A stretch of 63,230 nt of DNA, filler included, from Bipalium vagum (Eukaryota): NCBI GenBank assembly GCA_037834085.1. It is 3 parts of 3 records of this genome, joined end to end, with 100 filler letters (N's around TTAATTAATTAA, not from the genome) between each part and the next. Parts side by side here need not be neighbours in the genome. Positions count along the whole stretch, not along the records: positions 16,597 to 43,502 come from JBBMKC010118761.1; 2 more parts are not named here. The stretch is one strand, 5' to 3'. A model generated the notes under the pieces. That model was not told the DNA's origin. It saw only the letters and a program-made list of their open reading frames with translations, and made no database searches. Below are positions 18,633-43,293 of the stretch, in pieces (the stretch's first letter is position 1; each line of letters begins with the position of its first letter). The position numbers and the translations under genes were made by a program.

Positions 18633-18652
18633 AGCTGACTAGGCAGCCACCA
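18633..18652 (+). promoter_or_regulatory. Putative UGA-CUAG stop-codon readthrough signal (copy A)
   Basis: AGC TGA CTA GGC AGC CAC CA. The frame continues as LGSHHIEEYL (Ulp1 'WL...I..YL'). Confidence 0.7.
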
Positions 18653-19499: not shown

Positions 19500-21032
19500 T
19501 TTACTTAACCCAATCAGCCCATCTGAAATCATTGCTGCCATCAAATCAACATCAAAATCTGCCCTAGGCTCCGATGGCATAACATATGAGGACTGGCAGA
19601 ACATCGACCCAGAAGCAGAATTTCTCACGGCCTTTTTCAATTATATCATCATCACTAAAAACATTCCAACACAATGGCAAACCTTTAAAACGACGCTCAT
19701 ACTAAAACCAAGCAAAGATGCATTCTCCCATATGATGCCATCTTGGAGACCAATCGCAGTGCTCAACACCAGTTACCGAATCTTTGCCCTAATTATCAAC
19801 AACAGAATCCTGGACTGGGCCAAAACCGGCCCAGTAGAAACGAAAAAGCATTATTTTCAGACAATGGCTGCTCTGAATATAATGCAATCATCAACGGGAC
19901 TGTTGAATATGCGAAATTCAACAAATAAGAGTTTCATACATGCTTCATGGACATCGCAGAAGCATTTCCATCAATTCCGCACCAATTAAATTGGGAAACT
20001 CTTCGCAAATCTGGACTACCAACAACGGACACTGATTTCATTAAAACAATATACCAACATAACTCTACACATTTTCAATGTCACCATATAACAACGCCGA
20101 CCATTAACATCAATAAAGGTGTCAAACAGGGCTGTCCACTCTCCATGACACTCTTTTGCCTCTGCATCAACTTCCAAATTCGCGCTATGGAGGGAATCAG
20201 CCCAAAACTAAAGATCTTTGACACTGATCTCTCATGCCTTGCGATAGCTGATGATCTTGTCATTTTGGCACCTACTTTCAACGATCTCCAGAACCACCTT
20301 AATATCCTAACACAACTGACGAATGCAATCCATCTAAAGTTCCACCCACACAAATGCCGTTATATCAGCATAAACTCCAACCAATCCAACCAACTCCAGA
20401 TCTATGAAGAATCCCTACCAACTGTCGACTCTGATCACATATATACGTATCTTGGCGTAGTCCATGGGGCGGATCTACGTACTGATACGGACAAAATCCT
20501 GAAGAAAAATACAGAGGACTTTAAATATATTATTAACTCCGACTTACATCCGGCACAAATGATACACGCCTATAAATCTTTTATCCACTCTAGACTACCT
20601 TTCCACCTGGAGAATAGAGTGGTGGATACTCTCACACTCACATCACCTCATGCTAGGCAATCTAGTAGTAGAGAAAAATCCCTCGGATACGATGAGATCC
20701 TGCGGCACATGATCAGAAACATCACTGACTCTCATCGTCTCCAAAGTACATACATCTACGCACCTACAGCTCTCGGAGGACTCCAAATAACAACAGCTTA
20801 CGACGATTATCACATCTGCAGTATCGTCCAAGCACTCCGACTCCTCACTAGCACCGACAACGCTCTAAGGAACTTTGTGAAAAACCACCTTCAACACACC
20901 ATCCACATCCGCAAAGAAACTGACTCCACCGAAATATCTATCAATGAACGGATGCTCATCTGGCTGAGCGATCGATTAATCATCAAGTCTCAACCTGGTG
21001 GTCAAAAGTCAGAAAAAGCTGTAGGAATCTGA
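19500..21032 (+). pseudogene. Reverse transcriptase domain of copy A (frameshifted)
   Basis: Motifs GSDGITY, SWRPIAVLNTSYRIF, DIAEAFPSIPH, GVKQGCPLSMTLF, AIADDL, HKC, YTYLG and LGGL. Confidence 0.93.
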
Positions 21033-21163
21033 GAAAATTGAAGATAGACTGTGATTTCTTCAATCACAATGGATAAATCCACCTCAAAATCGTATACCAA
21101 ACCTCAGACACTAAAACGACTTCTCAAATTTTCAAAAGAGAAAATATTCTTGAAACTACCGGA

Positions 21164-21955
21164 ATGTTACATGAAGCAGTAGCGATGGCCTATTATCGCG
21201 AATGGAAATCTCACAAGTCCCAGGAGTTGTTGGTACCAGTATTCGCACTGAGTATCAAATCCAACTTGATCCTCAACAAATTCCATCTTCCTCCATACAT
21301 CTGGAAATGGCTGTTGAAAGCCAGAAATAACAACCTGGGACTAAATTATCGAACCTTCAATCTGGTCAAATCTGCAAATATTCTCTGTAGGCACTGTAGA
21401 ACATTTCCAGAATCCCAGGCGCATGTCCTGAATCATTGCGCCTTGAGACCATTCATGCCCACCATCAAGCATAATGCCGTTCTCAACAAACTTGTCAGCC
21501 TTTTAAGAAAATATGGCTACGACGTAGATGTGGACGTTGTACCCAAAGAATCCGATTCCAACCTCAGACCAGATATCTTCATCAGACTGCCAAAAGAAAA
21601 GAAAATTCATATAATTGACGTAAAGGTTCCATACGATTCCGCTGAAAACTTCCAAAACTGCAGACACAGCAATGCCGCTAAATACCAACCAATGGTAACG
21701 GAAATCAGTGCCAAAACAAGATTAGAAATATCGTTGGACGTCATCAACGTGGGATCTCTTGGTTCGTGGAACCCAGCCAACGACCTTGCACTCACGAAAA
21801 TAGGCCTCAGCAAGGATCAAATCCAACAGACAGCCCACCAATGTCTCGTTGCAGCAGTCACCGAATCCTATCACTCCTTCCTGGTATATGTCACTGCCCC
21901 ACCAGGCTCTACTATTGTCCATCATCAGCCAACAACAACATCACACACCAAATAA
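21164..21955 (+). CDS. CCHC knuckle plus restriction-like endonuclease (RLE) of copy A
   Basis: CRHC..ESQAHVLNHC, KHNAVL, LRPDI...IIDVKVPY...AKY, and VGSLGSW. Confidence 0.93.
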   Translation: MLHEAVAMAYYREWKSHKSQELLVPVFALSIKSNLILNKFHLPPYIWKWLLKARNNNLGLNYRTFNLVKSANILCRHCRTFPESQAHVLNHCALRPFMPTIKHNAVLNKLVSLLRKYGYDVDVDVVPKESDSNLRPDIFIRLPKEKKIHIIDVKVPYDSAENFQNCRHSNAAKYQPMVTEISAKTRLEISLDVINVGSLGSWNPANDLALTKIGLSKDQIQQTAHQCLVAAVTESYHSFLVYVTAPPGSTIVHHQPTTTSHTK

Positions 21956-22792
21956 CCCGTCTCCGTGTTGTGATGTGTTTTTGAGAGTATTCATATTATC
22001 TTATTGTAATTTTATCTTTATTATAATCCTCTATATTTCATTATTATAATGCCCCATTTATTATACCTTGTATATATCCATCCGTGTACATGTGGTTTTT
22101 CCCATTACACCATGTATATATTTATACATCCAAAATCCATTAAAATCATACTATTTTTACTAATTAATTCCGCAAGTGCATCTGATCCTATCTCTTTTAC
22201 TGATAGGTTTGCCTTGCCTGCATTATGTATATATAAAAAATTGTAATTAATTTTATATAGTGTAAATTTCTGTAAATTATTCTCGACTGTGTATATTCTT
22301 TTTTTAACGATTTGGGTGAACTTTCCCTTATATAACTTTTTAACTTGTAAAAAATCCAGAAATGTCACTCAAAATCCCATTGTATTTATTTTAAATAAAA
22401 AAGAAATTCGCGGTTGTTCCACCGGAATATTCTTTAAATGCCATTATAGTGCCCTTTTTATGTATGGTGTATATTTTTGTATGCTTGCTTTTGAAACTTT
22501 TGTTTGAGTGTGGGGGTTGTCTGAGTTATGCTACTCCAGCCTTCAGCTGTCGTGTTGACACGTTCCAAAATTATTTAATTTATAACGGTTGTTGAGGGAT
22601 CAGCTGAAACTGATACTCACTCCCCGTCCCAGAGTGATTATCTTGCATTTACTTTGTTTAGATTTCACCCTTGGCCCGGAGAGAGGACGGAAGATACGGT
22701 TTTTCTAGAATATGGACTTCAATTTGACATGGGATGCTCTGCACCGTGTTTGTAATGTCATAAAATTGAATAAAATTTTTCAAAACCAAAAA

Positions 22793-22818: not shown

Positions 22819-23369
22819 CAATTCCGAACCGAAATGAACTTCGATCTTCGAAATCGCTCCGAAGACTCCCGAACAACGTGTGCATGGAAACAGTCCTCTT
22901 TAGGACTAATTTCGATTGTTGAACAAAAAATGGGTGCTGTGGTCTGTCCTCTGATGACTGGAAGTTTACGCAGTACTAAATCTGGTACAGTTTCTCATTT
23001 TCTATCGGATGAAACTGTTTCCAGATTTTCTCGCAAGAGGTTCGCCGCCGTGGATGGGTGCCAAGATGGCGCCAAACTACCGAAATTGATGTCAGAGACT
23101 TCGACTCCGACAATGCTGTGCCAGGTACCATTGGGTGCCTTTCCCAAAGCTGGTCGAATCGATACGCTAAAGACTCCAATCCGGCGAGAACCAAAGTCCC
23201 TGGAAGACTTTAAACTCCTCAGACAATTCAACCGCATTTCCATATGCGGAAATTCGGACACTTCCAATGGCGACAAAACATTGAATTCGACTCCGACCAC
23301 GAAAAATGTCACAGCACTTTGTAGATCTCGCCTAGATCTTTCAAATGCTGTTACGGAATCTGGATAATG

Positions 23370-25290
23370 CACCTTCTGAACAACGAATGGACAAAGAGCA
23401 AGAAAAATCTATATCACCAAAACAACAACCAACCAATCCAAAGCCAAATCAAAGTCCAAAACCATCCCACAAGCCGGACAATCGTAAATATGCTCCGAAC
23501 TACAACGTACCAAAATACACCAAGGCGAATTGTCCCAGACCGGACCTCATTGGTCAAGAAAGATTTATTTTCGCAGGATGGCCACCTCTCAATGGGCAAA
23601 ATTCGAGCATGTTCAGAGCCACATATAGAAAAATTTCAGTCAACAAGAAAAACATGCCACTCCTAATCGACTACCGATACAATCCGGACATGGAGAAACG
23701 AAAAATAATTGAATTTGGCTTCGCACCGCCCAAAACAACCATCGTGAATTCAAACAAGAAACAACCTGAAAACCAACCAATCTCAAACTCGGTCACCGTT
23801 CCAGAACCTCTATCGCAACAATTACTACCACCACAGCCAATGGAGGTTGATCTGGAGCCATTTCCGCTTCCACCTGAACAGCAAGACGACATCATCATTA
23901 TTGAAGACTCCACGACAGCACCAGAAGAAAAAGATGATGACGATATAATTCCTCCTCCGCCAGCATTTAGATCCACCATTGTTACCCAGACCAGCATTGA
24001 AACGAGAGAAATTGGCACACAAACTGATGAAGACAAAAACACGGAAATCTCGCCAATAACCCATCGAAAACCTATAAAAAGAAGAAAGACTTTCTTCAAT
24101 CGCACCAACCCGGAAGAATCAGAAGATAATATCTCCGTCATTTCCATCGCCTCATCCAGATTATCAACCGACAGTGCGAGGCCCCTAATGATGGAAATTA
24201 GATCCATGCCACTTCCACCGGCTCTTCCACAATATCAACCTGAAGCTAACACCGACTATGACTTCACCTCAATAAATGACAATGATATCGAGCTAGGCAT
24301 TCCAAGACCATCCACCGAGCTACCAGAATCCTGCAACACCACCATCAACCTAGATACAATAAATTTCTTTGCTGGCGCACTGGATAACACTCAAGATGAA
24401 ACCCTTGCAACATTCACCTCAATCGATCGAATCGCCTGCAATGTATGCAAAAAAGTTTTTTTCTCACGTGTAAATAATTGACCGTTGATAGTCTGGAAAA
24501 AAAAACCGACTATCAACTTGTATATATTACCACTTTTAATTCTATTGTACAAATCTTGGTTGTACACTCCATTCCTCACTTATACATTTTCCTTACTGTT
24601 TTTCTTTCCTCTGTATAAAAAATCAAACTCCCTATAGTTTTATATCGTCTTTCCTGGTATAAAACCCTAGGACCATCTAAAATCAAATCTCCTTTAAATT
24701 GTTTATATAGTTTCAATATCACCTTTTGTACATTTTTATATATTGTATTTATTGTATATATTCTTCCTTTTTAACACTTTGGGACCACACTACAAATATT
24801 AATCTCATCCAACAACCTTCAATTTTCAAACCTAAAGCCACTCAAAATCACTTTTTCACACCATTAAACTTAGTAACCTTAAAGATGTTTCACTGAAGGT
24901 TTACTAATAAGACCTAGTGCGCTTTTTATTGGGTTGTATTTGTACATTTTTATCCATCCGTATTATGATTGATGCCTTGTGTACTACGCGTCTCATAATA
25001 TCAAATGTTACTGTCGTGTTTTCACCCCGTTTCTAAAATCACCACCAACTTTACACATGAAACCAGTACTCTCTCTGCCGATAGTAAGCAACAATGTGCT
25101 TTGTCCTAGAGCCTTATAAATATGAATTTATTCAATTTAGACGGACTTCTGTGGACCTGCCTTTGCCTTGGGATTTGACGAGTGGAACAGTCAAAATGTT
25201 GCAGAAAATTGTGTATATAACTTGTGTAATATGCCTCTGGCATCTTTGTACTGCGTGTTATATTCTAAATACAATTTTTGAAAACCAAAA
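23370..25290 (+). mobile_element. Utopia-like copy B: N-terminal ORF part joined to a 3' UTR (internal deletion)
   Basis: ORF 23345-24481 is homologous to copies A/C/D/E and stops at the first finger (CNVC). 24900-25290 shares TAGTGC..TTTTAT, CTGTCGTGTT, GGACTTC and AATTTTT-AAAACCAAAA with the 3' UTR of A. Confidence 0.85.
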
Positions 25291-25318
25291 CTGTTCTTCT
25301 CAGTTTAATCTCTGGGAC
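25291..25318 (+). ncRNA. U2: U2 snRNA fragment (3' of the branch-point recognition sequence, stem IIa) at an element 3' junction
   Basis: CTGTTCTTCTCAGTTTAATCTCTGGGAC versus canonical U2 CTGTTCTTATCAGTTTAATATCTGATAC. The changes keep stem IIa pairing (TCTCAG/CTGGGA). Confidence 0.85.
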
Positions 25319-25437
25319 AAAGCACAAAAAAGAAAAGTCTTGGGCGTCCGTCTACTACAGGTCGTCTTAGCCGCGAAATCAGTGGCCCTCCGGGGGTTAA
25401 AGTATCGGGTCGTAGGGGCCAGTTCTCAGCGGAAGTG

Positions 25438-26100
25438 TAGCTATGATCAAAAAAAGGTAAAATGATCAAAATGTGGTAAAACTATTCGTTATGTCAGCAT
25501 TTTGCCCTTTCTACGCTTAGTGAAGGGTCACCCCTCGATATCTCCTGCTGCTCGGCGACTCCCGACCGACCTACCATGTTTGACCGACAATCCTATGATC
25601 CTGTGGCACAGCCTGCTGAAGGTCTCTGATGTCCTGGACGCATTGGATGCCCTATGGACCCCGCCTAGGGCCAGAGGTGACATTTATCCAAATTTTTGCA
25701 ACTTTATTACTATTGACATTGATGGTGACCTTTTAATTGTAAATATTTATATGTTAACCACTTTTGTGTATTTGAATGTTGTATTTCCTTCCCCTAAACT
25801 CGGCCCTTCTGGCCAAAATTTCCACTTTTATCTATATTATACGGTATATAAGGCTCACTACCAAAATTCTGCCCATATTTTTACTCCACTGCCTACATCA
25901 CCCGTTTCTTGACCGCTCTCCCTTCTTCTGCATCCTTCTAAAATATCACCTTCCATCTCTCTGTCCTTTTCCTATTCTAAATACCAATGTATAAGAGTCT
26001 TTTTCGCCCTTAAAAATCTAAAAATTTATATATATTATTTTCTTTATGTAATTTTTTACCAAAATAAAAAGTCTCAGATCCCGGCCCAAATTTGTACAAT
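25438..26100 (+). mobile_element. U2 5' fragment followed by the 5' end of a Utopia-like copy
   Basis: TAGCTATGATCAAAA at 25438. ORF 25502-25912 aligns with 42601-43293 (WHSL..V...LDAL.ALWT.PRA.GD; PS.KLGP.GQN). Confidence 0.75.
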
Positions 26101-26244: not shown

Positions 26245-26655
26245 TCTCGTGAATTTATCCCCACCTGGTTTCCGCAGTCTTCGGCCCCTTCTCCTTCATC
26301 TGTAACCCGGCCTTCCACGCCTGTTAATCCTTTTCCTACTCCCTGTAAGAAACATGTATCCTTTAAGGAGTTTGTCCTGAAAGGCCCTGGGAAGAGCAAC
26401 TCTCCTGTTGCGCCACGACCCTCGGAACCAACAAGAACACCACAACCGAAGGGTCCGAGTCCAATAACTGGAAAACGGATTTTACCAGTTCATGACAAAG
26501 TACAACGGTCAATGGAACAGGAGAGGGCCCTCCCTGCTGAGGACTATTTAGCAAAATTTGCCCTCAGCCCTCCTAGGAGATGAGTGAAACGTCTCCACCC
26601 TAATGACATTGCCTTAACCGCAAATCCTGGCCGCATTGTTTGCAAAGGCTTTACA
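26245..26655 (+). repeat. ~410-bp near-identical duplicate of 38430-38840
   Basis: Direct alignment shows only scattered substitutions. Confidence 0.95.
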
Positions 26656-29600
26656 AAAACCTTCGGGAAAAATATAGTTTATGTTCAAATTATGAGCGGG
26701 GGGTAATAGTGGAGCGAGCACTCCCCATGGAAGCTGGCACTAATCCCCAGCTCTCCATTGGCCCGATTTTGTATCTCATTTTTAATAAGTGTATAAAAGT
26801 AGTTCTCAATATAATTATATATATGTATATTTCTTGTATATATATTACCAACATACACTTAAACAACGTGTACAATGCGTTGTCCTTGGCATCTCTGGTC
26901 ACAAGGACCAAATGTCAAATTATTGCCGATGGGGCTGCCAAGAATTATTTAGTTAACTAGTTTAGTTAACTAGCCTTACTAAAAGTTATACCACTTCAAA
27001 ATAAATGCCTTTTGCCATATCTGAGACAAAAAACTCTATCCTTTTTAACAACATATTAATAAATGACCGCCGCAATTGCAATCTTAATAATGTATTATAT
27101 ATTTTTAATTATAATATTACCCAGATGGACTGCACTGACTCCCAGCCATCTGTTCCAGGGCCACACCCCCAAAATTTCACGAAATTTCTCCCGATTTTAA
27201 TGACTTTTTTTACCAAAACCTACAGGAAAAATCGAATTCCCTGTTATAATTATTCGCGGGGGGGTGAAATGGAGCGCGATCTCCCCATGGGAGCTGGCAC
27301 TTATCCCCAGCTTCCCATTGGCCCATGTTATATTGTAATGCTTCAATGTATAAAAGTAGTTATTCATATATTTATTTATATTATAACCTACTATATTAAT
27401 ATACATTTAAACAACGCGTATAATGCGTTGTACATGGCATCATTGGTCACGAGGACCAAATGTCAGATAGTAGCCGATGGGGCGAACAAAGACTTTAGGT
27501 GTTACGTACAGGATAAGTCGACCCTATCGTATTTAGAGGTTTTAACAAAAACGGTAAGGGGATATGATAGGCGGCTTTATGAATTAGTCCCAATCGAACC
27601 AGTAGGGGCCACCAACCAACAACCACGGCCAACTCCGACCCCTACTGGCAAAAATAATGGCGCCATTAAGCACACAGGCCCAAAAAATTGGCTTAAAAAT
27701 CAAAAAAGTCACTCAAAATCGGCCACCATCAAAGACTTGATAGGAATGATTGAGGACTTACGGAGCGATATTAAGCGAGGAAAAGAAGAAGGCGATAGGC
27801 AAAGCGAGACGGTAGAGATAAAAGAAAAAGTTAAGTTAACGAAGGATAAGTATAAGGGCCCCAGCCTTACCATCGAGGCCACCAACGGGGATAGGAAGGT
27901 GACGGTTACAGGAGAAGAAGGATGGACCGTCGTTGGCAGAAGAAACCGCCAGCAAATCACCATCAGAACCAGCACAAACGGCAAGATCAACAACCGCCGA
28001 ATATAATCCAAAGGCCGAAGAATCCTCAACAGCCAGGCAAAAGAAATACTAAGAAAAAGACCACAAACCTGCTCGAATCCAACAAGAACAAAACAGACAA
28101 GAAAGTTTCAAACCAACTACCGTCCAACATTGAGCAACCACAATTGCCATCAAATACCAAGCAAATAACCGAAAACACGAAGCCAGATCCAACGCATAAG
28201 CCGAACAATTCCAAAACGGCTCCAAATTATAACATCCCCAAATACAATCACGAAAACTGCCCAAGACCGGACTTAATTGGGCAGAAGAGATGGATCTTTG
28301 CCGGCTGGCGCCCAATACACGGGCAAAACTCCAATATGTTCCGGGCAACATATCGGGAGATAAAGGTAAATCGTGTAAACATGCCCCTCCTGGTGGACTA
28401 CCGGTACAATCCGGATATGGAAAAACGTAAAGTAATCGGTTTTGGCTTTGCCCCGCCTGCAAAACCCATTGTACAGAAAAACCAAGTGGAACCAAATCAG
28501 TCAACCACCACTATCATCGAACAAACAACACAAACACAACCACTTGACACAATCATTGGATCACCACAAGAAACAATCACAGAGCAGCAATTGATGGAGG
28601 TCGACCTCGATGCCGAACCTACCTACACTATCGAGGATGAATATTTCCCGCCTCCGCCGGCTGAGGAAGATGAAGTCACAATCCTTGACGAACCAATGCC
28701 ACAAGATGACGAGGATGATGAAATCAATCCTCCTCCGCCAATGTTCAGATCCACCATTGCAACACAAACAATGATTGAAACGAGAGATTTCGGCACCCAG
28801 ACTATCCAAATGAACACCATCGAAATATCTCCACATGTCACCAGAAAGCCTCTTAAACGCCGAAAAACAATGATAACCCAATTCAATGAAAATAACTCTG
28901 ATGATGATGCATCTATTATATCAGTCGCGTTCTCCAGGAACTCATCATCAAACAACGCTCGACCGCTAATCCAAACAACACTCAAAACCATCAATCCACC
29001 TGCCTCAACATCAAACAATGTCTACGCTACCAATCCCGGCTGTGATTCACTCTCAGACCTTGATTCTGAAATTGAATTAAATGAAACGATATCACAACCA
29101 ACCACCAACGTTGAAGACATAGCGGAATCCTGTAATGGCTCCATGGATTTGAATGCCATTAATTATTTTGCAGGGGCAATTGACAATACGGACACAATTG
29201 CAACCTTTAAAGCCTACAATTCCCTAACGTGTAACTATTGTAACAACAAATACACCTTCAACAATGGCAAATCCTGTGGTTTCGACGCCCACCTTCTCAA
29301 CAACCACCAAATAAAACAAACACCGGATTCCATGTACCGATGCATCTGTGGCCAGGCAATTAGTAGGAAAAACTTGCCCTCGCACATCAGCTCACACATC
29401 AGAGCCACAATGCCAACATCCACCGACGTCTGCGACATTCCGCAGACTTGGAGCAAAGCTGACTAGGCAGCCACCAGATAGAGGCCTATCTCAGGACCAA
29501 AATTACCATCAAGAACCATATTTATATCAGACCCGGTCCTGCGATAGCCCTATCTCAAGGAAAGATTAAAGATTTTTATGAAATCTTTCCTTTTCATCTA

Positions 29601-29930
29601 CTTGGCGAATGGCAGAAAATCATGTGGCCAATACATTGGAAATCACATCACTGGCTCATCTTCCTTGCCGACCGTACCACCAGAAGAACATTTTTACTCG
29701 ATCCACAACAACCAAACCTTGATGAAGCCCAATTGGACCTTTTTTGCCTCCTCACAAACATCGTAAACAAAATTGGCGCACCGCTTGACCCAGATCCACT
29801 TGAAATGACCAAACCAGACTACCAGCCAATTCAAACAACACTCAACGACTGTGGATATTTCATCCTGCAATACGCCATTAAATTAGTCCTAAAAAACCAT
29901 CTTTTGCTGTTTTTTCCATGACAGAGAAGA
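26655..29930 (+). mobile_element. Short 5' fragment (26655-26940) plus Utopia-like copy C (N-terminal ORF, fingers, Ulp1; no RT)
   Basis: ORFs 27005-28006 and 27922-29466 are joined by a deletion frameshift. TGA-CTAG at 29460, then WPIHWKSHHW...QTTLNDCGYF. Confidence 0.9.
29457..29476 (+). promoter_or_regulatory. Putative UGA-CUAG readthrough signal (copy C)
   Basis: AGCTGACTAGGCAGCCACCA. A 10-nt deletion upstream relative to copy E shifts the ORF-track frame. Confidence 0.65.
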
Positions 29931-29932
29931 TG

Positions 29933-30173
29933 GTTCTTACCAGATTTCCCGGAGAAGATCTTATACAACCAACCAATCAAAATCGACTACCCTTTGGAAG
30001 AACATCTTCGAATTCCAACTCTGCGAATCCTGGTCGGATTCCAACGCCCGACCCATCTCCGGAAAGCCCTCGTCGAGACGATTCCGAGGCAATGCCCAGA
30101 TCCGCGGTACCACTCGCGGAACCGTGGGTCAAAACTGCTCCAGAAGATCCCGAGTGCCACAGTGTCGATGCCA
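29933..30173 (+). repeat. ~240-bp near-identical duplicate of 34407-34647
   Basis: Direct alignment shows one visible mismatch. It spans a Ulp1-truncation/GC-rich filler junction. Confidence 0.95.
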
Positions 30174-33100
30174 TAGCTATGATCAAAAGTGAACCAGCCA
30201 ATCAGCTTCAAGCTATTGATTTTATCGATTTCCTATTGGCTCACATAGGAGCCAACCAGACACCGATTTCAATTAGAAGATACAAATTCAACCAAATGCT
30301 GAATATTGAAATTTTGGACTTCCAATTCTCCGTGGATATGCCCCAGATCTCCGGAAGATTTTTGCTGCCCGACGATTGGGCTATGCCCCAGCGTAGCGTG
30401 GAAGAAATTTCTCTAAATTTTGAGAAATTTTTTGGAAGCCGAAAAATATGTTGCATGTGGCTTTTATCCCTTGCTAAGGGAGTTTTGCCACATGTCAAAT
30501 GTGGTAATGTTATTCAATTTGCAACCCGCCCTCCGCTTTGCTATTCAGGACCCGACAACGCCATAAATGCAGGAAATTCACCATGTCAATCCCGACCGAC
30601 ATTCCCGGAACATCAATCTTGCTCACCCCGGCTTCCCTGTAAGGAAGCGTCTGGGGAGTCCTATGGTCGTCTCGACGGCCGTGGGCAAGCCGAGTTGACC
30701 GGTGGAAAGTCAACAGAAGGTGATTTGAATAACTTTTTGCTGAATAATCGTGTTTTCCAATATTGTAATAGAATTTCTTATTTTAATACCCCCCTTAATA
30801 ATTTAATCGTTGATTTATATAGATTTGACACCAACGAATTCATCTACGATGAATTCATCACAAAATTTAAGCTAAACTCTAAGCTTTTCATTAAAGTTCT
30901 TAAATTTATTAATTACAAAATAGTAAAAATTTTAAACTGCGAATTTTTAATTATTTTCAACGTTCTTGGTGTCAAATCAAAGCAAAATTTCCAGACTATT
31001 TATTGTACTATTAAAGACTGTAATGCGTGCGGTCTTTCTTATATAAATCTAATTTTTAACGCATATTTAAATTCTTACTTAAACAATAAATTTTACGGTT
31101 TTTTAATTCTCGATTTTAGCCCTAAATTTTTACTCTATATAATAGAGAATTTTTTTCTCTATTATACGATAATTTTAAATAATTTATTGAGTGATTTTAC
31201 CCAGAGATATTACGTCTCAAAAATTCAACAAAATCTACTTAAACAAAATCAAGTAATATCTCTGGGTGAATTACTCCATTTTGAACTTTATACTGAGGCG
31301 TCCACCGTTATCCTGGAGACCGGAATTGTGCTATTTAGTACAATTTCAACGGTGGACTTTCTTTTAAGACCATCCCGAGCTAATTCCATCGCTCAGATAA
31401 ATAGTTATTTAATACCTAAAATTGCCAGTTTAGTTAGAAATTTACCAAAATTTCTAACTAAGTTATTTTCAAATTTTTTCCATTTTCTGCCTGCCTTCAG
31501 TATTTCTATTTCTCTTAGCCCAGGGCTTATGTTACATCATTTTAAAGGCCGGACGATCCCCTTTTATAAAAATATAACATCTAAAATTGATCGCCGCCTG
31601 ATAAAATGTTCTTCAATTTCAAAAATTATCTGTTTTGACACTCCTAGACCTAAATATTCCAAAACTTTAAACACTCTTTTAGTTAATGACCGCCGCATTT
31701 ACAGTTTTAATACTTTATTATATAATTCTAATTATTATAATTACCAGATGGTCTGCACTAACCTCCAGCCATCTTCTCCAGGGCCAAACCCCCGTATTTT
31801 CAATGTTTTTTCCCTGAATTTAACACCTCTTTTCACCAAAACCTTCGGGAAAAATCCTATTTATTGTTTCAATAATGCGCGGGGGGGGTGAATTGGAGAA
31901 TGATCTCCCCATGGGAACTGGCACTTATCCCCAGCTTCCCATTGGCCCATTTTATTTTATCATCTCTCAATGTATAAAAGTATTCTTCCATTTATTTATG
32001 AATGTTATCGCTTATTATACTAAAATACATTTACACAACGCGTATAATGCGTTGTACATGACATCTTTAGCCACCAGGGCTAAATGTCAGATAATAGCCG
32101 ATGGGGCAAATAAAGATTTTAGATGCTACGTTCAGGATAAGTTGACCCCATCGTATTCTGAAGTGTTAACGAAGACTGTTAGGGGGTTTGATGGGCGGCT
32201 CTATGAGTTAGTCCCAATTGAACCAGTAGGGGCCACCATCCAACAATCACGGCCAACTCCGACCCCTACTGGCAAAAATAAAGGCGCCGTTAAGAACATA
32301 GGCCCAAAACATTCATCTAAAAAATTTAATAGTCACTCAAAATCGGCCACTATCCAAGACCTGATAGGGATGATTGAGGACTTAAGAAAAGAGCTTAAGA
32401 AAGGGAAAGAAGAAAAAGGCGCTAGGCAGAGCGAGATGTTAGGAAATAAAGAAACAGTTAAGGTATCGGAGAGTAAGTATAAGGGCCCCAGCCTTACCAT
32501 CGAGGCCACCAACGGGGGTAGGAAAGTGACGGCCTCGGGCGAGGAGGGATGGACCGTCGTTCGTGGACAGAAGAAAAGCTGGCAGAAGAAGCCGCCAGCC
32601 AACTACCACCAGAGCCAAAACAAAAGGCAGAATCAAAGACTGAAATATCCTCCAATACCACCAAATAAAAACAAGGACCATCAATCAAACAAAACCCAGC
32701 AGAAGATCAAAACCAATCCAATTCAAAAGAACAAAGTATCCGAAAAAGATTTGAATCAAAAACCTCCAATTATCGAACAGAAGAAACCAACAACTAATAA
32801 AAATTTGCTAACTGACAACACCATAAAGGAGCCAACGCATAAGCCGAATAACTCAAAAACGGCTCCAAACTACAATTTCCCAAAGTATAACCGGGAAAAC
32901 TGTCCAAGGCCGGATCTAATTGGACAGAAAAGATGGATTTTCGCTGGCTGGCGCCAAATACACGGGCAAAAATCGAACATGTTCCGGGCGACGTACCGAG
33001 AAATAAAAGTTAATCGTCGCAATATGCCCCTCCTCGTGGACTACCGGTACAACCCGGACATGGAAAAACGAGGTATTATCGGCTTCGGTTTTGCTCCGCC

Positions 33101-34465
33101 CGTAAAATCAAACACCACCAAAAATCAAGAAAATCCTGCGGAGCCCACCATCAATCCTGGCAAGAAAACAATGTCAACACTACCACTCGAAACAATAATG
33201 GAGCCGGAAACACAACTAATGGAAGTCGATCTCGACGCCGAGCCGACTTGCTCCATTGAAGAGGACTATTTCCCACCTCCACCGGCTGAAGAGGATGATA
33301 TCATTGTCCTTGACGAATCCATACCTGAAGAAGACAATGAAAATGACGATGATGACATCATTCCTCCTCCACCGATGTTCCGCTCCAACATCGCAACGCA
33401 GACTGACAGAAACGAGGGAGATGGCCACACAAACTGGCGATATACTAACCGAAATCTCACCGATCGCCCCTCGCAAACCAATCAAACGGCGAAAAACCTT
33501 TTTCAACCGGACCAATCCAGACGAGTCCGACGACAATATTTCTATCATATCAGTCGCCTCCTCTCGCATATCCACAGCGAGTGCACGACCTCTCATGGCG
33601 GAAATTAGATCGATTGCACAACCACAACCACCAACTCATAACCCCTACGAAGACAATATCCACTGTGACTCTCTGGATGAAGAGGAAACACTAATCACTA
33701 ATGATGATAACATTCCGGAACTAATTTTCCCACCTGTTGAACCAGGAAATCCTAATGATAATTGTGGGGGCCGGATCAATCTAGACTCAATCACTTTCTT
33801 TGCCGCTGCAAACAACGAGACGTCAATTGCCACTGCCGAATCCTGGACCAAAATGATTTGTAACTTATGCGATTCAAAACCCTCCTTCACCATGAAAGAT
33901 TTCAAGCACAAGGGCCTAGATCAACATCACAAAAAGGCACATGGGTTACAACCAAATAAGCAATCCAGATACCGATGTTTTTGCGGGATCACCCTCACAC
34001 GTGACCTGTTCTATAGTCATCTCCAATCACATGGCAATGAACCAACTACAAACTCAAACGACATCACGGACATCCCTATCACATCGAGTGACAGGGAGGC
34101 CAGCTGACTAGGCAGCCACCACCTAGAAGCATACTTGCGGGCCAACATCAATAACCCATCAACCATATACATTCGGCCCGGACCCGCAGTTGCGCTCACA
34201 CAAGGCCGTATTGACCATTTCTTCGAAATTTTCCCATTCAACAAGCTTGGAGGATGGGAAAAAATCATCTGGCCCATCCACTGGAAGTCCAACCACTGGA
34301 TGGTCTTCCTAGCCAATCGAAAACGAGGCATCTGTTTCCTCTTGGACCCGGCGAATAAGAATCTCAATGAGGAACAAATGCAACTTTTCCTCCTTCTGCA
34401 CACCATGTTCTTACCAGATTTCCAGGAGAAGATCTTATACAACCAACCAATCAAAATCGACTACC
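30172..34465 (+). mobile_element. Utopia-like copy D: complete 5' half from the U2-derived leader to a truncated Ulp1
   Basis: CATAGCTATGATCAAAAGTG (U2-like) at 30172 opens a 570-codon frame. It continues via 31875-33608 and 33256-34107 (two small frameshifts), TGA-CTAG at 34105, then in-frame Ulp1 at 34108-34460. Confidence 0.9.
34102..34121 (+). promoter_or_regulatory. Putative UGA-CUAG readthrough signal (copy D)
   Basis: ORFs 33256-34107 and 34135-34662 are in the same frame and separated only by this TGA. Confidence 0.75.
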
Positions 34466-34659
34466 CTTTGGAAGAACATCTTCGAATTCCAACTCTGCGA
34501 ATCCTGGTCGGATTCCAACGCCCGACCCATCTCCGGAAAGCCCTCGTCGAGACGATTCCGAGGCAATGCCCAGATCCGCGGTACCACTCGCGGAACCGTG
34601 GGTCAAAACTGCTCCAGAAGATCCCGAGTGCCACAGTGTCGATGCCAGTCGACAATTTA

Positions 34660-37600
34660 TGAAGATCAATGTTGCTCACCCCGGCTTCTCTGTAAGGAAG
34701 CGTCTGTGGAGTCCTGCGGTCGTCTCGGCGGCCGTGGGCAAGCCGAGTTGGCCGGTGGAAAGCCAACCGGAGGTGATTTTGCTAAATTTACTAATTATAA
34801 TGGAATTATTCAATTTTCAAGTTATAATTATATTTTAAATGCCCCCCAATCTAATTTTATCACCAATCTATATCAATTTGGCACCAAGGAATTCATCTAT
34901 GATGAATTTACCACCACATATGGCCCAATTCTTAAGATTTTATTTAAAATAACTAAGTTTTTTAATTCTAAAATAGCAAAAAATTTATTTTGTCAGTTTT
35001 CGTCAGAATTTAACGTTCTTGGTGCCAAATTGAAGATAAAGTTTGGCATTATTTATATTATAATAGAAGGCTGTAATGCGTGCGGTCTTTATTATATTAA
35101 AATGAATTTTTATTTAGGCCATTTTAACCGATTTGAATGTGCGCCTAACAACGCATATTTAAAATCGGATTATAACAAACACAAGACCAAGCCAGAACCA
35201 ACGCACAAGCCGAATAATTCAAAAACGGCCCCGAATTATAATTTTCCTAAATATAAACGGGAAAACTGTCCAAGGCCAGATTTAATTGGGCAGAAGAGAT
35301 GGATCTTCGCCGGATGGCGCCCAATACACGGGCAGAACTCGAATATGTTCCGGGCGACATATCGGGAGATAAAAGTAAATCGGCGCAACATGCCCCTCCT
35401 GGTTGACTACCGCTACAACCGGGACATGGAGAAAGGGAAAATTATAGGCTTCGGTTTTGCTCCGCCCGCAAAATCCATTAACAACAAAAATCAAGAAGAA
35501 TCTAATCAGCCAACCATTAATCTCGTTGAGCAGACAATTCCAACGCAACCGCTCGACACGATCCAAGAAATACCGCAAGAAACAATCACGGAGCCGCAAT
35601 TGATGGAGGTCGACCTCGATGCCGAACCGACTTGCTCTATCGAGGACGAATGTTTCCCACCTCCACCGGATGAGGAGGAGGATGTCATACTCCTTAACGA
35701 GCCTCCACCAGAAGAAGACAACGATGATGATGATATCATTCCTCCTCCACCAATGTTCCGATCCACCATAGCAACACAAACGACCATTGAAACAAGAGAT
35801 TTCGGAACACAGACTATGGTAATGAATACAATCGAAATATCTCCACATGTCACCAGAAAGCCCATTAAACGCCGAAAGACAATGCTAACCCAATTCCATG
35901 AAAATAACTCCGATGATGATGTCTCTATTATATCAGTTGCGTCCTCAAGGAATTCATCATCAAACTACGCTCGACCTCTCATCCAAACAACAATCAAGAC
36001 CATCAATCCGCCAGCCTCAACATCAAACAATATCTACGAAACCAATCTCAGACCTTGACTCCGAAAACGATTGAACGAAACAATATCACAACCAACCATC
36101 AACGTCGAAGACATTGCGGAATCCTGTAATGGTTCCATGGATTTGAATACCATTAATTATTTTGCAGGGGCAATCGATAACACCAACACGATTGCCACCT
36201 TCAAGACCTACAACTCATTGTCATGTAACTACTGCAATAAAATTTATACCTTTAACAATGGAAAATCCTGTGGGTTTGACGCCCACCTCCTGAATAACCA
36301 TCAAATGAAACACACCCCAGAATCAATGTACCGGTGTATATGTGGGCAAGCAATAGCCAGAAAAAACCTACCATCACACATTAGCTCCCACATCAGAGCC
36401 ACGATGCCCACATCAACAGAAATCTGCGACATTCCACTCACTGCCGCAGATATCCATCCCAGCTGACTAGGCAGCCACCAGATAGAGGCCTATCTCAGGA
36501 CCAAAATTCCGAACAAAAACCACGTCTACATTAGACCCGGTCCTGCGGTAGCCCTATCACAGGGGTAATCAACACATTCTATGAGATTTTCCCCTTCCAT
36601 AGCCTTGGAGAATGGCAGAAAATAATATGGCCAATACACTGGCAATCCCAGCATTGGCTGATATTCCTTGCAGATCGAACATCCAGACGCGCTTTTCTGC
36701 TCGAACCAATGAAAACGAACCTAGACGAAATGCAGTTAAACCAACAAAATATGCGCTCCTCTCGACCCAGATCCAATTGAGCCAGCAAAACCAGATATTC
36801 AACCACTACAAGGATCTGCACCAGATTGTGGATATTTTATCTCAAAATACGCCATCAACTTCAGCGAGAATAAGGAATTTGAAAACCCAAATGTTGAAGC
36901 CATTCGGGATGAAATTGCACAAATTACAAAGGCCATCTTAAGCACCAGGATCCTAAAGCCAGACAACAAAGAAGAGGCAAAATCAACGCCCCCTATACTG
37001 GCAGAGGCCATCATCAGACTGGACAACCCGAATGACAACATCACAGATATCCTTGACATAGCAAGAAGAGCAACAGCTGACCTATTTCCAGCAAAATATG
37101 CAAAGGCGGCGAAGAAAACACCAGTTCATCAATATATTGAAAAAGAAACAGCCTCGGCCTTTAAACTCAGAGCCCAATATGAGAAAAACCCTAAAGACGT
37201 TTTTCTATCGCTCTTACCAACGAGCAATCCATCAACTCTACCAACTACTGAGGATATTGTGACGCACTTCACCACAACAGCACCGCCACCAATCGACCAA
37301 AATTTTCTACACAATATTCCTAGGCATTCCATTTCCACCATCACAGAGCCAATTCTACCATCAGATGTCGAAACAGCGATCAAAAATACCAACAAATCGG
37401 CACCAGGCCTGGATGGCTTCACATACGCTGATTGGAAGAAAATCGATCCGGAGTTCACGTTTCTTTCCAAACTATTCAACAGAATCATAACGACGAAAAC
37501 CATCCCGGAACAGTGGAAAAATTTCAAAACCACTCTCCTCCTAAAACCGGGAAAAGATGAAAATTCCCATCTCCTATCATCATGGAGACCAATAGCTGTA

Positions 37601-38215
37601 TTAACAACATCATAAAGACTATTCGCTTTGATATTAAACAAGCGTATGCTTGAGTGGATTAAACATCACCAACTTATAAATCGCAATCAAAAGGCCCTTC
37701 TCTCAGACAATGGATGTGCAGAACACAATGCCACCATTAACGGCATTACCAAAGCAGCAAAGCAGGAGAAAAAAGAATATCACATCTGCTTCTTGGACAT
37801 TGCCAAGGCCTTTCCAAGCGTACCTTACCAACTATTATGGCAAACTCTGAACCGATTAGGCGTTTCCGCAGACACGATTACACTCTTCAAAAAGATCTAT
37901 GAAGACAACAAGACCTCCTACGCATGCCAACATTTAACAACAACACCCATCACGATAAACCAGGGAGTCAAATAGGGTTGTCCTCTATCGATAACCCTAT
38001 TTTGCCTCAGCATAAATTTTATGCTTAACAATATCGAACAGACCACGCCAAAACTCACAGCCTTTGGCACTGAATGGAACATCCTCGCGTACGCGGATGA
38101 TATTGCCATCATCGCGCCAACAAACAAATCTCTACAAGCGAAAATTAACACCATCGTAGCCCTTGCAAAAGGAATCAGCCTAAAATTTAGACTCAGCAAA
38201 TGCGGCTATTTCTCC
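34660..38215 (+). mobile_element. Utopia-like copy E (internally deleted N-terminus, fingers, Ulp1, RT; 3'-truncated)
   Basis: Homologous N-terminal blocks, TGA-CTAG at 36464, QGSAPDCGYF, SAPGLDG, SSWRPIA, DIAKAFPSVP, GVK*GCPLS and LAYADD. Confidence 0.9.
36461..36480 (+). promoter_or_regulatory. Putative UGA-CUAG readthrough signal (copy E)
   Basis: CCC AGC TGA CTA GGC AGC CAC CAG ATA GAG GCC TAT CTC (HPS*LGSHQIEAYL). Confidence 0.7.
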
Positions 38216-40820
38216 GATTGTTTCCTCTGAGTCCCATTCTGCTACCCAACAACACCTTCGACGTAACCGACGCCGCTGTAAGGGTAAGAGACGTGATGCC
38301 CAGTCAAAACCTCCTATGCATACGACCTCGTCTAATCTTGAGTCTCTACTTATCTCCTGTCCAAATGGCTCTTCCTCCGGCCGCACGGTGACTATCAGAA
38401 GCGGCCCTAAAAACTCTCCGAAGAGTGCATCTCGTGAATTTATCCCCACCTGGTTTCCGCTGTCTTCGGCCCCTTCTCCTTCATCTGTAACTCGGCCTTC
38501 CACGCCTGTTAATCCTTTTCCTATTCCCTGTAAGAAACATGTATCCTTTAAGGAGTTTGTCCTGAAAGGCCCTGGGAAGCGCAACTCTCCTGTAGCGCCA
38601 CGACCCTCGGAACCAACAAGAACACCACAACCGAAGGGTCCGACTCCAACAACTGGAAAACGGATTTTACCAGTTCATGACAAAGTACAACGGTCAATGG
38701 AACAGGAGAGGGCCCTCCCTGCTGAGGACTATTTAGCAAAATTTGCCCTCAGCCCTCCTAGGAGATGGGTGAAACGTCCCCACCCTAATGACATTGCCTT
38801 AACCGCAAATCCTGGCCGCATTGTTTGCAAAGGCTTTACATGCCTCTGCGGACGGGATCCGTCACTCCACTGGCCTTCTCCGCAATCCAGTATCAATGCG
38901 GCCACGGATTTCTGATAAGAACAGTACCACTCTTTTTCCAACAAATATCTAATGTCAAATCCTTCTTCATTCCTCAATTTACGTATATTAATTATTTTGA
39001 ATGATTGAATTTAAGGAAACATATATACTCAAAATCAGCTTTGTCTAAACTTAATTTTAATTTTTAAATAATTTCGTTTTTATTTTAATTCAATTTTTGT
39101 TTTTAAAAGTTTATTAGATATAAAAAATGATTATGAGGAAAATTTATTAGATGTAAATTTTTATTATTGGTGTATTTACATAAATTTTTATTTAAATTTC
39201 ATTTTAATTTTAATTAACAATTAAATTTTATATTAATCTAAAATTTTATTTATTTGATTTCAAGTAAATATATTTATAGTTTTTTAAATAACTGTAATTT
39301 AGTATTTATTAAAAAAATCAAACACCGCAACAAATGGCACAATCTTTAATCGTTCAAGAAATCATTAAATTATATAAAGATTACAACGATTTAAAACTTA
39401 AATGCGAGAAATTGGAAAAGTAAACGGTTTCTATTTTAGTTACTTTATTATTTATTTAGTAACCAATCTTCTATTAAGTCCTTCCTTGATCGTTGCGAAT
39501 TAACTATCACTGATATTGAAAATAAAAATATCTACATCCATAAAATTTTGAAAGAACAAATTGACGAAATAAGAGTATGGCTAAACACCATAAAGAAAAT
39601 TGTGGAGGAACAAGACGAAAAAAGAGAAGACGAACAAGGAGAAACCAACAATAGGACAAGACGTAGTTAAATGTAGTTTTTAAAAACAAAAAGTTTTTGT
39701 TACTTTTTAGATTAGTACATTTTAGATTTTGTACTATATTTAAAATGTACGTTTGTTTTTACATGTTTACTTTTATTATATTTTAAAATGTACTTTTCAC
39801 AAAATATTTTTTCAACCACTTTTTAGTTTTAAAATTGAGAAAATTCATTTTTATTAAAAAAGTGGCTCAAAAGTGTGTTTTGAAAAATGAAATTTTTTTT
39901 GACTTTTTAAAATGAGAAAAATTTTGACTTTTGATTTTTTAAATTTTTGTTGTTATTTATATGTAGTTATATAAACCAGACTTTGAGGAAAGACCCCGTA
40001 TCATTAAATTTGAAAAAAATATTATTTAGAATTTTTTAGTAGTTTTTAGTACTTTTCTTGTTTTTGCGGGTAAGTAATTGTTTAAATTGATTTACTAAAA
40101 TTTCGTTTTCCATTTTTAAAGGAAAAATTTAACTTTTTAGACTTTTAAAAAATTTACTGAAAGAAAATGAAAAAACTAAAGACAACATAAATTCCACAAT
40201 ATCAATTCGATATAACGCCGAAATATCAAGACATCAATTAGATAACAATAATTCAACGTAACGCAACAACAACAGAACAATATAATAGAAAGCAGAAACG
40301 CTGTATCCTACGAATACGCACAGAAGTAATAACTAAAGTCGTAAAAACTTTCTCAAAAGAACAACGAAATTAAAACAAAATTTTATATTACATCCATTGA
40401 CAACGATAGACCTCCTACGGAATTCCAGACTCAATTGTATTTCCGCAATTAGACATTTAGTAGCAATTATAAGATAATTGACTACCACCCAAGTCGTAGT
40501 TTCATTCAGCAATTATCATCAAAGTGATATACAAATATATATAAAAGATCATAAACTGACAAAAAAGGAAAAGAAGAGAAATCAAGAGATAGATAATTCT
40601 GAGCGCGAAATTCCAGTACGAACAGAATAAAGAACTACCATCGGGACCGAATATTCAAAGCCTACTTGCAGAATTTTTATGCCCTTATTTGTAAAAGTAA
40701 ACCTTTCGTTGTTTTTTGACTTGTTACAATATTTGTAACAAAGTTTAAATAAATTATTTTACTGTTTATCATTAATATTTGTCTTAAAGTTGTAAAGTTA
40801 TATAAGTAGTTGTGAAATAA

Positions 40821-40930: not shown

Positions 40931-41379
40931 AATCGATTTCAAAATTAATTAATATATATTTTTTATATCTATATAATAAAGGTCAGGACCTGAGGATCAT
41001 TTAATTTTTTTATTCCTGTCCCTTATACTTTTTATTTTTTTTACTGTTCATATTTCACACTCTAAGTAAGGCGGTGAGATATAATTTTATTCTTTATTGA
41101 GGACCTCTGAGCCTAAGTGCGAGAGGATTTTTCGTAATTAATAATTATAATTAATAAACTTATCTACTATCAGTCAAAGTCGATATCACGCATCGTTATT
41201 CATTTTTTTAACTTTATTCGATTCAATAAAAGTATTAAAATTGATATCGTTTTCTCAGTTGATATAATTAATTACCACATCGAACACAGACTAAAGCAAC
41301 CTTCAACCATTAGGACCTAAGATATTGCTAAGCTCCAACCTTATCATCATTTATTCACCCAATTTAGGATCTTAACAGA

Positions 41380-42117
41380 AGTTAAGAAAAATGGAGTAGA
41401 CTATAAGGGCTTTCCATCGAGGCCACCAAATAGGGTAGGAAGGTTACGGCAGTAAACGAAGAAGGATGGACTGTCGTAGGCCCCAATGGAATAAAAAGAA
41501 AAATTCCAAATTCTCAACCAATGATCAACAATTCAAAAGGAAAAACACCGCCAGATCTACTCAAAAACCGAAGGAAAACCCAAAGCCGAATAATATCACT
41601 GAAAAACATCCAACTCATTTCCAGCCATACTCTACTCCAATTGTACCAAATTCAGAACCGACTGTGCCACCTCCAACCTAAAATACTAAGTGTTCCAACT
41701 CACAAACCAAATAATAGCAAGACGGCACCAAATTACAACATTCCAAAATATAGCCGTTTAAATTGTCCAAGGCCAGATCTCATTGGACAAAAACGTTGGA
41801 TCTCTGCAGCGGGGAAACCGATCCATGGCAAAAATTCACACATGTATTGGGCCACCTACCGAGAAGTCACTGTCACCAGAAAGAACATGCCCCTCCTCGT
41901 TCATTACCGATACAACCCCGATATGGAATCCGGCAAAATAGTGGACTTTGTCTTCACCCCACCGCAAAAAATTGAAAATAAGTCAACTGAAAATTCTAAC
42001 ACACTTCATGGCCCACAGCCAAATACAAAACAAGGCCACAAGCCACCACAGAAAGGCCCACAGCCACACACAGCTCCGAACCCATCAGACTCAATTACTC
42101 AACCAAACTCTTTATAA
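41380..42117 (+). mobile_element. Utopia-like copy F fragment (N-terminal conserved domain)
   Basis: EEGWTVV and PTHKPNNSKTAPNYN...CPRPDLIGQKRW...YRYNPDME. The GPQP repeats match copy A. Confidence 0.88.
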
Positions 42118-42418
42118 ACGCAAATTTCCACGTTTTCCTGTTTTTTGAACATGTATGCATAACACTTTCGTCGACGTCATCTGAAAATCGATAAATATCA
42201 CTATATATGGAATTTTTTGGATAAAAAAGGTTTTCTTATTCTTATTTCGAAAACAAATGTCAATCTGGTTGCAGAAAATGATTTTTCTAAATACAACAAT
42301 AAAAACGTCACTTTTTCACTTTTTTTCGTCAAATATTCATTTTTCAAATGTGAAATAAAAAACCCCTAAACATGGCTATGTCCACGGCATGTTCCGCGCT
42401 AGCACCCTCCTCTTTTTT

Positions 42419-42453
42419 ATCGCTTCTTCTTCATAGCTATGATCAAAAGTGTA
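42419..42453 (+). ncRNA. U2: U2 snRNA 5' end (to the branch-point recognition sequence), interrupted by the element
   Basis: ATCGCTTCTTCTTCATAGCTATGATCAAAAGTGTA versus U2 ATCGCTTCT...GCTAAGATCAA(A)GTGTAG. Stem I has a small deletion. Confidence 0.85.
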
Positions 42454-43293
42454 AGATCCCAATAAAGCCAATGAATTTCGTTTTGCTGCTATGAAATACA
42501 AATTAGCCAAACTTGAAAATATGGAAATTTTCAACTGCTAATCCAACCAAGATTATGCCCCAATCAGTGGATCTTTTTTTTACCGCCCGATGACTGGGCT
42601 ATGCCCCAGCATAGCTGGGATGGAAAATTTTCCGAAAATTCTCGATCCGGAAAAATCATCCACATGTGGGTTTTATCCATTGCTAAGGGAGTTTTACCAC
42701 ATGTAAAATATGGTAATTGTCTTAAATTTGCCAGCATTACGCCGTTTCCTTGCTTAAGGATGGAAAGCATCTCACCAATTCCTGTGGCTCGGCCACTCCC
42801 ATCCGACCCGATGTGTCTGATGATCAATTCCAAGATTCCGTGGCACAGTCTGCGACGCGTTCCCAATGCCCTTGATGCACTGGTTGCCCTATGGACCTCA
42901 CCTAGGGCCAAAGGTGACTTTTCCACAAACTTTTTCATTATTACTGAACTTGACAATGATTATAACCTATTATTTGTGTATATTGGTATATTGTATGCTT
43001 TGGTATTTAAGTGTATTGCCTTTCCGTCTCATAAACTCGGCCCTTTTGGTCAAAATCTCAAATTTTATCCTTATTATAAGTTTTATGAGGCTCCCCACCC
43101 AACTTCTACTTATCTTTTTTACTCCTTTATCTCCACCACCCATTTTTTGGCTGCTGACTCCCTTGTATTACCCCAACATCCTCCTAAAATAACATCGTCC
43201 ATCTCTTCTTCCTTTTCTTATTCTGAATATCAACTTTTTTATATCTTTAAAAATTTGCCGGCAATGGGGAGCCTCAATACATTTGATTTTTAA
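42454..43293 (+). mobile_element. 5' end of Utopia-like copy G
   Basis: ISG.F..PDDWAMPQ.S and MW.LS.AKGVLPHVK.GN are shared with the 5' ORF of copy D. Confidence 0.85.

Follow-up and report, generated by a model that had tools for sequence, protein, structure and literature searches.

The locus described here raises the question of how a retrotransposon that inserts into U2 small nuclear RNA (snRNA) genes has its protein translated. The window, meaning the whole stretch of Bipalium vagum DNA that was analyzed (63,230 nt including filler), holds eight fragments of one retrotransposon family (copies A to H), all on the same strand, all between positions 16724 and 43293, and mostly 63-80% alike in pairwise comparison; coordinates are on the plus strand unless marked (-). 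A preliminary description of this DNA had proposed that the open reading frame (ORF) of copy E starts at an AUG inside a U2-derived leader, the start codon being borrowed from the insertion target. On balance, and with modest confidence, the fragments are taken to be a decayed U2-targeting Utopia/NeSL cluster that was likely transcribed from the U2 start, translated from near the 5' end through a long spacer and continued past a UGA-CUAG stop by readthrough. Within this account, the UGA-CUAG recoding signal is better supported than the U2-AUG start model.

By its target and its domains, the element is a Utopia/NeSL-type U2-targeting retrotransposon. The domain order, pooled over copies, is an AT-rich N-terminal frame, a THKP..YRYNP block, an acidic tract, two CCHH-type zinc fingers, a Ulp1-like protease, a reverse transcriptase (RT), and a CCHC finger with an end of the restriction-like endonuclease (RLE) type. 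The RT domain was matched by Pfam RVT_1 (E 1.8e-18), with R2 proteins as the best PDB matches. The C-terminal region (21077-21955) carries CxxC..H..C and RPD..D motifs, located by eye, as for a CCHC finger and RLE; its sole Pfam match was RmuC (E 3.8e-5, below the cut-off), and no APE endonuclease family was found among the scanned ORFs of the window. The protease of copy D was matched by Pfam Peptidase_C48 (24.2 bits, cut-off 20.7; Atlas 0.95), and the HW, LLDP and DCG motifs of the protease align with the His-Asp-Cys catalytic motifs of yeast Ulp1 (E 0.77). A phmmer search of the read-through protease against the PDB returned chance matches only, and a single-sequence fold model of the protease (predicted local distance difference test 37.9) was unusable. 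The query taken from upstream of the RT gave one weak match among longer proteins (36% over a third of the query) and no match among viral contigs, queries of 130 and 190 amino acids (aa) from the N-terminal protein returned 0 homologs, and the THKP block had no usable Atlas match.

In copy E the zinc-finger reading frame, ORF1, ends at a TGA (34105) that stands in a UGA-CUAG motif (34102-34121) and at the first Trp position of the protease. Five TGACTAG sequences are present on the plus strand of the window; four lie at the equivalent site in copies A, D, E and F (18636, 29460, 34105 and 36464, respectively) and the fifth is unrelated to the element site. The in-frame UGA is thus found at the protease start in 4 of 4 copies covering the site, with the frame continuous across it in every one, and the 20 nt around it are identical in the four copies. 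UGA CUAG has been described as a readthrough consensus. Immediately downstream, the proportions of nonsynonymous and synonymous differences (pN 0.215, pS 0.85) indicate purifying selection. The element protease begins X-L-G-S-H-x-I/L-E-x-Y-L, where X is the UGA, and the Ulp1 domain shown in S5 Fig of PMC4640811 opens with a starred Trp in W-L-x-D-x-x-I-x-x-Y-L/I. When the two are compared, L, I/L, Y and L line up, the Asp is absent, and the UGA stands in place of the Trp. The catalytic His follows 63 residues past the UGA, compared with 58 in NeSL-1 and 66 in yeast Ulp1, as counted on that figure (S5 Fig, PMC4640811).

The codons flanking the UGA are identical in 5 of 5 cases, against 14 of 77 conserved residues elsewhere (P ~2e-4). 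The post hoc nature of this test and the relatedness of the four copies (D and F are ~80% alike) weigh against recoding, as does the lack of any strong shared RNA structure downstream of the UGA beyond a 4-bp hairpin. Thirteen coding segments contained 41 TGG and one TGA, the latter ending a host ORF, a weak count given that the segments were chosen as open frames; copy A has one additional TGA at a Trp position. From the conserved UGA-CUAG, its frozen codons, the Trp position and the use of TGG elsewhere, it follows that the stop is likely recoded at this single site. Judged on these sequence patterns, recoding of one kind or another is highly probable, and ribosomal readthrough is probable. 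The arrangement points to programmed readthrough with a retrovirus-like ORF1/ORF1-protease-RT layout. A search of the open-access literature, with Repbase outside it, turned up neither a U2-derived start codon nor stop readthrough described for elements of the RLE type that lack long terminal repeats (non-LTR elements).

Upstream of the zinc-finger part, copy E has an N-terminal frame (30179-31891) of 570 codons that is AT-rich, stop-free and without amino-acid constraint. That the ATG at 30179 is in frame with a stop-free stretch of this length had been noted before and was borne out: the terminating stop lies at 31889-31891, and dinucleotide shuffles of the region held 32.8 stops on average and were stop-free in 0 of 300 cases. 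The other forward frames across the region contain 37 and 60 stops, and a count over all five other frames gave 31-60. The preliminary description missed that the stretch forms just the N-terminal portion of a longer frame, one that the conserved UGA interrupts. Its end in copy E is due solely to a G-run frameshift near 31880 that is absent from copy D, and by comparison with copy D the frame runs on past this point into constrained ORF1, amino-acid constraint beginning ~40 codons past the G-run. The copy E frame is also open upstream of the ATG, back to 29882, across a 241-bp repeat.

Segments of the N-terminal frame from five copies had 0 stops in the reading frame against 4.9-32.8 expected, the segments of G, C and D being delimited by their own ORF bounds and these three thus not independent tests. 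The homologous parts of C, D, F and G keep this frame open: 444 aligned codon pairs contain 1 stop, where the observed divergence predicts 12.8; as few stops as observed arose in 0 of 2000 divergence simulations. The ratio of nonsynonymous to synonymous substitution (dN/dS) in the spacer was 0.59-1.85, without third-position excess, compared with 0.03-0.35 downstream. The 570-codon region is under selection against stops and under none for protein sequence. A frame that is kept open but unconserved argues that translation probably begins near the 5' end, with ribosomes crossing the spacer. In the same pairs pS was lower in the spacer (0.10-0.41) than downstream (0.56-0.70), and RNA-level constraint or mosaic ancestry therefore also acts there, which complicates this reading. 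Other accounts of the frame were rejected: a chance ORF by the shuffles, none of the 300 being stop-free, an antisense shadow of another gene by the 23-55 stops in the reverse frames, and an ordinary conserved protein domain by the spacer dN/dS of 0.59-1.85.

The 11-mer GCTATGATCAA around the ATG has exactly three exact occurrences in the window (25440, 30176 and 42436), in agreement with the earlier report that U2 tags carry this ATG at 25443 and at 42439. In copy E, the 5' tag (30172-30191) contains ATG 30179 in the sequence GCT ATG ATC AAA AGT (30176-30190), is identical over 20 nt to 42432-42451, and has non-U2 DNA as its upstream neighbour. At the copy G junction the U2 5' part is present from +1 (42419-42453), its ATG 42439 opening only 8 codons, and the flank upstream of +1 (42370-42418) is a candidate snRNA promoter, identified from sequence only. 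Retention of the U2 +1 at 42419, also reported before, was recovered weakly, as an alignment to position 1 of the Rfam U2 model (12.2 bits, E 2.6, 241-nt scan) in which stem I shows a 2-nt gap and two additional A precede the branch-pairing sequence. Copy C has a short tag (25438-25452) whose ATG 25443 is out of frame and gives 5 codons before a stop. A U2 3' part (25291-25318) lies directly after an A-rich element end, spans model position ~40 to 65 with stem IIa intact, and was matched against U2 model positions 38-84 (17.4 bits, E 0.13, a weak match at a single 3' junction); it forms a Utopia-type 3' junction, like the Trichinella Utopia junctions of S1 Fig in PMC4640811. A whole-window Rfam scan found no U2 and no other snRNA gene, and with a U2 profile made from 16 metagenome loci the U2 pieces of the window were recovered only at E 1.3 to 36.

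Contigs of run X1, possibly the source sample, gave further evidence on these junctions. One joins a G-type 5' end to this U2-flanked 3' end (42705 to 25256), the locus of the copy G 5' junction was matched with 0 differences, and element N-terminal sequence was found joined to another 23-nt U2 5' tag (34756 / 42429), so that the genome has additional tagged junctions. High-depth contigs (1900 and 2600, vs 21-31 for long exact pieces) cover 42427-42428 with a one-base insertion, and multicopy U2-like sequence is therefore present in the host. In the U2 3' piece (25291-25320) stem IIa is kept by compensating changes, and the piece is closely like the Ciona savignyi U2_sat satellite as drawn in S1 Fig of PMC4640811. 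The ~120 nt after it are GC-rich and unlike U2 and run directly into the tag of copy C; a U2-derived repeat may form part of the target. That the 150 nt after the U2 3' piece are a normal U2 3' half was ruled out, as these 150 nt fold no better than shuffles (z -0.36) and no Sm-like U-run was seen in them. Two further degenerate U2 3'-like stretches, at 22180-22215 (in the 3' untranslated region (UTR) of copy A, by eye) and 38912-38928 (-) (E 1), may be chance.

Whether the U2 AUG is the start codon was weighed on the junctions. In copy E it is the first AUG after the U2 +1 and is in frame; there is no other ATG between 30179 and 30296, the next one lying 39 codons on, and use of the U2-derived AUG as the start in copy E is rated somewhat probable. 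A series of observations weighs against it. Only one of the three U2-element junctions (E) is in frame, the other two copies being decayed or 5'-shortened. Copy G, the sole copy to keep the U2 +1 with its flank, lies one base off the frame and has an ATG of its own at 42491; it contains one other frameshift and one stop in ~850 nt, and later decay of an originally in-frame junction is possible but not likely. The first 36 codons after the copy E tag would be stop-free by chance at P = 0.18. Copy E lies outside any U2 gene, breaks off at 34406 and contains two frameshifts, its 5' junction is bridged by none of the 8 run X1 contig matches listed, and the window holds no full-length intact copy, every copy being broken. 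The AUG-form U2 pattern was found in at least 131 matches in at least 124 loci, 17 of 20 loci tested passing the Rfam U2 cut-off; the AUG is therefore a natural letter of many intact U2 genes and gives no sign of selection by the element. Among the 131 matches listed there was no 3-A or 4-A U2 form.

The preliminary description stood in part. Its statement that canonical U2 has AAG at this place holds for the human, fly and C. elegans genes and needs qualifying, AUG being common there in intact U2 genes. Of the borrowed start codon, the U2 origin of the tags and the first, in-frame position of the copy E AUG were upheld; comparison of junction frames, which it had suggested, placed C and G out of frame, on three junctions only. 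Its corollary, that only in-frame on-target insertions are expressed, is unlikely. Should the U2 leader stay on the RNA and pair with the target, as happens for R2 and 28S, the frame at a junction would be inherited, not filtered. At two near-identical loci (L014:934-1290 and L035:99-455), ~42 nt of U2 (positions ~9-50) are surrounded by non-U2 sequence, and a Cys-rich ORF of 118 aa starts at the U2 AUG, where the median ORF from the U2 AUG among the 131 matches listed is 13 codons; this may be an independent case, in another eukaryote, of a start codon derived from U2. In copy G a second upstream ORF (42471-42494) ends in a TGA overlapping ATG 42491, a stop-start overlap that may be chance.

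A different account of the junctions takes the U2 AUG as incidental, a natural letter of host U2, with the element using a start of its own (in G, ATG 42491; in E, either ATG 30296 or a near-cognate codon). In most cases the U2 AUG would then open a short upstream ORF, which ribosomes would leak past or after which they would reinitiate, copy E would be in frame by chance, and the U2 leader would be kept for some other use, for example target annealing in second-strand priming, as for the 28S nucleotides of R2. This is a serious but doubtful possibility. It draws on the many intact U2 genes with AUG, on the out-of-frame junctions of C and G, on the ATG of G standing in the same GCT-ATG-A context, on the chance of E being both in frame and open (~1/3 x 0.18), and on the role of retained target nucleotides in R2 as presented in PMC13580325; against it, the second ATG of E is unconserved in G and lies downstream of sequence homologous to the G coding frame, and a ribosome scanning from the U2 +1 would reach the U2 AUG first. 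The arrangement around 30173 might also be an assembly chimera at the 241-bp repeat, in which case the tag-ORF context of copy E would be unreal. Near-identical repeats (99.6% and 97.8%) do flank the fragments in a scaffold with N gaps, and no contig among the matches listed bridges 30173. A chimera at this repeat would, however, alter the DNA upstream of the tag and not the tag-ORF junction, E and G have a common 20-nt tag followed by homologous sequence, and run X1 contigs match parts of E with 0 differences; a chimera is considered improbable.

Readthrough at the protease likewise has its competitors. The UGA could be corrected to UGG (Trp) by adenosine-to-inosine editing, with no readthrough at all. 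Editing of the stop-restoring kind is known from fungi and from hepatitis delta virus, the stop is one A away from a Trp codon at a Trp position, and the frozen 20 nt form a small hairpin in three of four predicted folds with the A of the UGA at the loop edge. The 3' context is nonetheless exactly the CUAG readthrough consensus, and a 4-bp hairpin is too short for a typical ADAR substrate; little credence is given to editing. Scarcely more is given to the UGA being a true stop, with ORF2 reached by reinitiation, splicing or trans-splicing, or to UGA meaning Trp genome-wide. Other non-LTR elements translate ORF2 by reinitiation, and the additional TGA at a Trp position in copy A would suit a genome-wide change of meaning. 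No Met occurs, however, between the UGA and residue 55 (copy D) or 66 (copy E), so that initiation downstream would leave out the protease's constrained N-terminal part, and the frame is continuous over the UGA in all four copies; the genome-wide meaning is opposed, if weakly, by the TGG and TGA counts of the open segments.

On the preferred reading, with readthrough at the UGA and a start at or near the U2 piece, expression would proceed as follows. A capped RNA would be made from the U2 +1 and scanned as far as the first AUG that can be used, which in copy E is most likely the one inside the U2 piece. Translation would pass through the 570-codon open spacer into zinc-finger ORF1 and yield an abundant product, the ~1,300-aa ORF1 protein, which stops at the UGA, together with a rarer readthrough fusion of ~2,400 aa with protease, RT and endonuclease. 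The residue inserted at the UGA, likely Trp, would complete the protease, which may process the fusion. Ulp1 enzymes cut after Gly-Gly, and, speculatively, the protease could remove the spacer at an Arg-Gly-Gly near the spacer end that is common to E and D (two copies).

The remaining features of the cluster are as follows. Copy A (16724-21955) runs from mid-ORF1 through zinc fingers, UGA 18636, protease, RT (19417-21032) and the C-terminal CCHC and RLE-type region (21077-21955, motifs by eye), with several frameshifts. Copy B (23336-25290) is an ORF1 fragment followed by AT-rich 3' UTR-like sequence resembling that of copy A. Copy C (25462-25987) is without ~300 nt of the 5' end and is homologous to copy G. 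Copy D (26650-29884) extends from the end of the N-terminal frame through the protease, with UGA 29460 and the His, Asp and Cys protease motifs. The rest of copy E ORF1 (31824-34107) has the THKP..YRYNP block, the acidic tract and two CCHH-type zinc-finger motifs (by eye), with its second frameshift near 33410, and is followed by the Ulp1-like protease (34108-34406), which is cut off at its end. Copy F (34658-38200) covers part of the N-terminal frame, ORF1, UGA 36464, the protease and part of the RT. In the copy G 5' region (42454-43293) the copy's own ATG 42491 is in frame with the E-homologous segment, and the region has one stop and one frameshift. Copy H (41410-42117) is an ORF1 fragment.

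The 241-bp repeat (R) flanks copy E as a direct repeat (left copy 29933-30173, right copy 34407-34647, 99.6% identical) and is stop-free in every forward frame. A 411-bp repeat (97.8%; 26245-26655 and 38430-38840) flanks copies D to F and derives from a Pro/Ser-rich 243-aa ORF (38184-38915) with no Pfam match. Beside copy H, 40982-41588 reaches a contig depth of 55,722 and is a very high-copy repeat. Host genes in the window include a PERK-like eIF2-alpha kinase gene with small introns (43555-46540 (-)), the protein of which groups with Macrostomum (97/93 support, 91 columns) and has a luminal part closest to trematodes among named matches, both placements pointing to a flatworm host, and a very divergent Piezo gene, also with small introns (53615-59293). 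Probable pieces of a Smaug/Vts1-like gene lie at 7706-8614 (-) and 13474-14115 (-) (weak Vts1 Pfam match, E 0.003; SAM-like motif by eye). A tRNA-like stretch seen by eye at 14612-14681 (-) was not called by ARAGORN and is a possible short interspersed element or pseudogene.

MLV (murine leukemia virus) gag-pol is expressed by stop readthrough. In Candida Tca2 a UGA stands between gag and pol (PMC2194720). The present element resembles both in that an in-frame stop, placed at the protease start, parts a nucleic-acid-binding ORF from protease and RT; MLV and Tca2 are LTR elements with aspartic proteases, whereas the element here is non-LTR and of the RLE type, its protease is a cysteine (Ulp1) enzyme, and its stop stands in a CUAG context. 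Utopia and its U2 target site were described by Kojima and Jurka in 2015 (PMC4640811). The flatworm element is like Utopia-1_TSP of Trichinella in its U2 target, a 3' junction near U2 nt 39 and a variable 5' junction, and like Utopia in its tandem and off-target copies and in its N-terminal zinc fingers, Ulp1 protease, RT, C-terminal zinc finger and RLE (PMC4640811). According to the same source Utopia generally encodes one protein and its protease is reported only in nematode families (PMC4640811), whereas here the host is a flatworm, the conserved UGA splits the frame, leaving a single ORF only if it is recoded, and ORF1 is ~1,300 aa with a 570-codon unconstrained spacer. The available portion of PMC4640811 mentions no U2-derived start codon or readthrough for Utopia.

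The flatworm spliced leader offers another comparison, its AUG serving as the initiator Met (Cheng et al. 2006, via PMC9851317 and PMC12582326). In both cases a short, capped, snRNA-like leader would supply the start codon; the spliced leader is trans-spliced onto many mRNAs, whereas here the leader would come from insertion into a U2 gene. R2, which targets 28S, has the closest solved RT and is like the present element in target nucleotides retained at the 5' end and in co-transcription with the target, which is likely here. It is translated without a required Met start by a mechanism that PMC13580325 leaves unexplained, whereas a U2-driven RNA would be capped and scannable.

As a tentative proposal, the flatworm Utopia lineage may have converged on a retroviral plan of expression, taking promoter, cap and AUG from U2, using a former 5' UTR as spacer and placing UGA-CUAG at the protease Trp, so that only the fusion would have an active SUMO-type protease, RT and endonuclease. 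Stop readthrough as a switch between ORF1 and ORF2 products is known from retroviruses and LTR elements, and a stop on the conserved Trp of the protease makes readthrough directly assayable. The start of translation in the R2 group is unexplained, a 2026 review calling the R2 mechanism unknown (PMC13580325); if the present account is true, the capped leader and AUG of the target would be a clean, testable answer for one lineage, and a long frame selected only for openness would be a good marker of true start sites in such elements.

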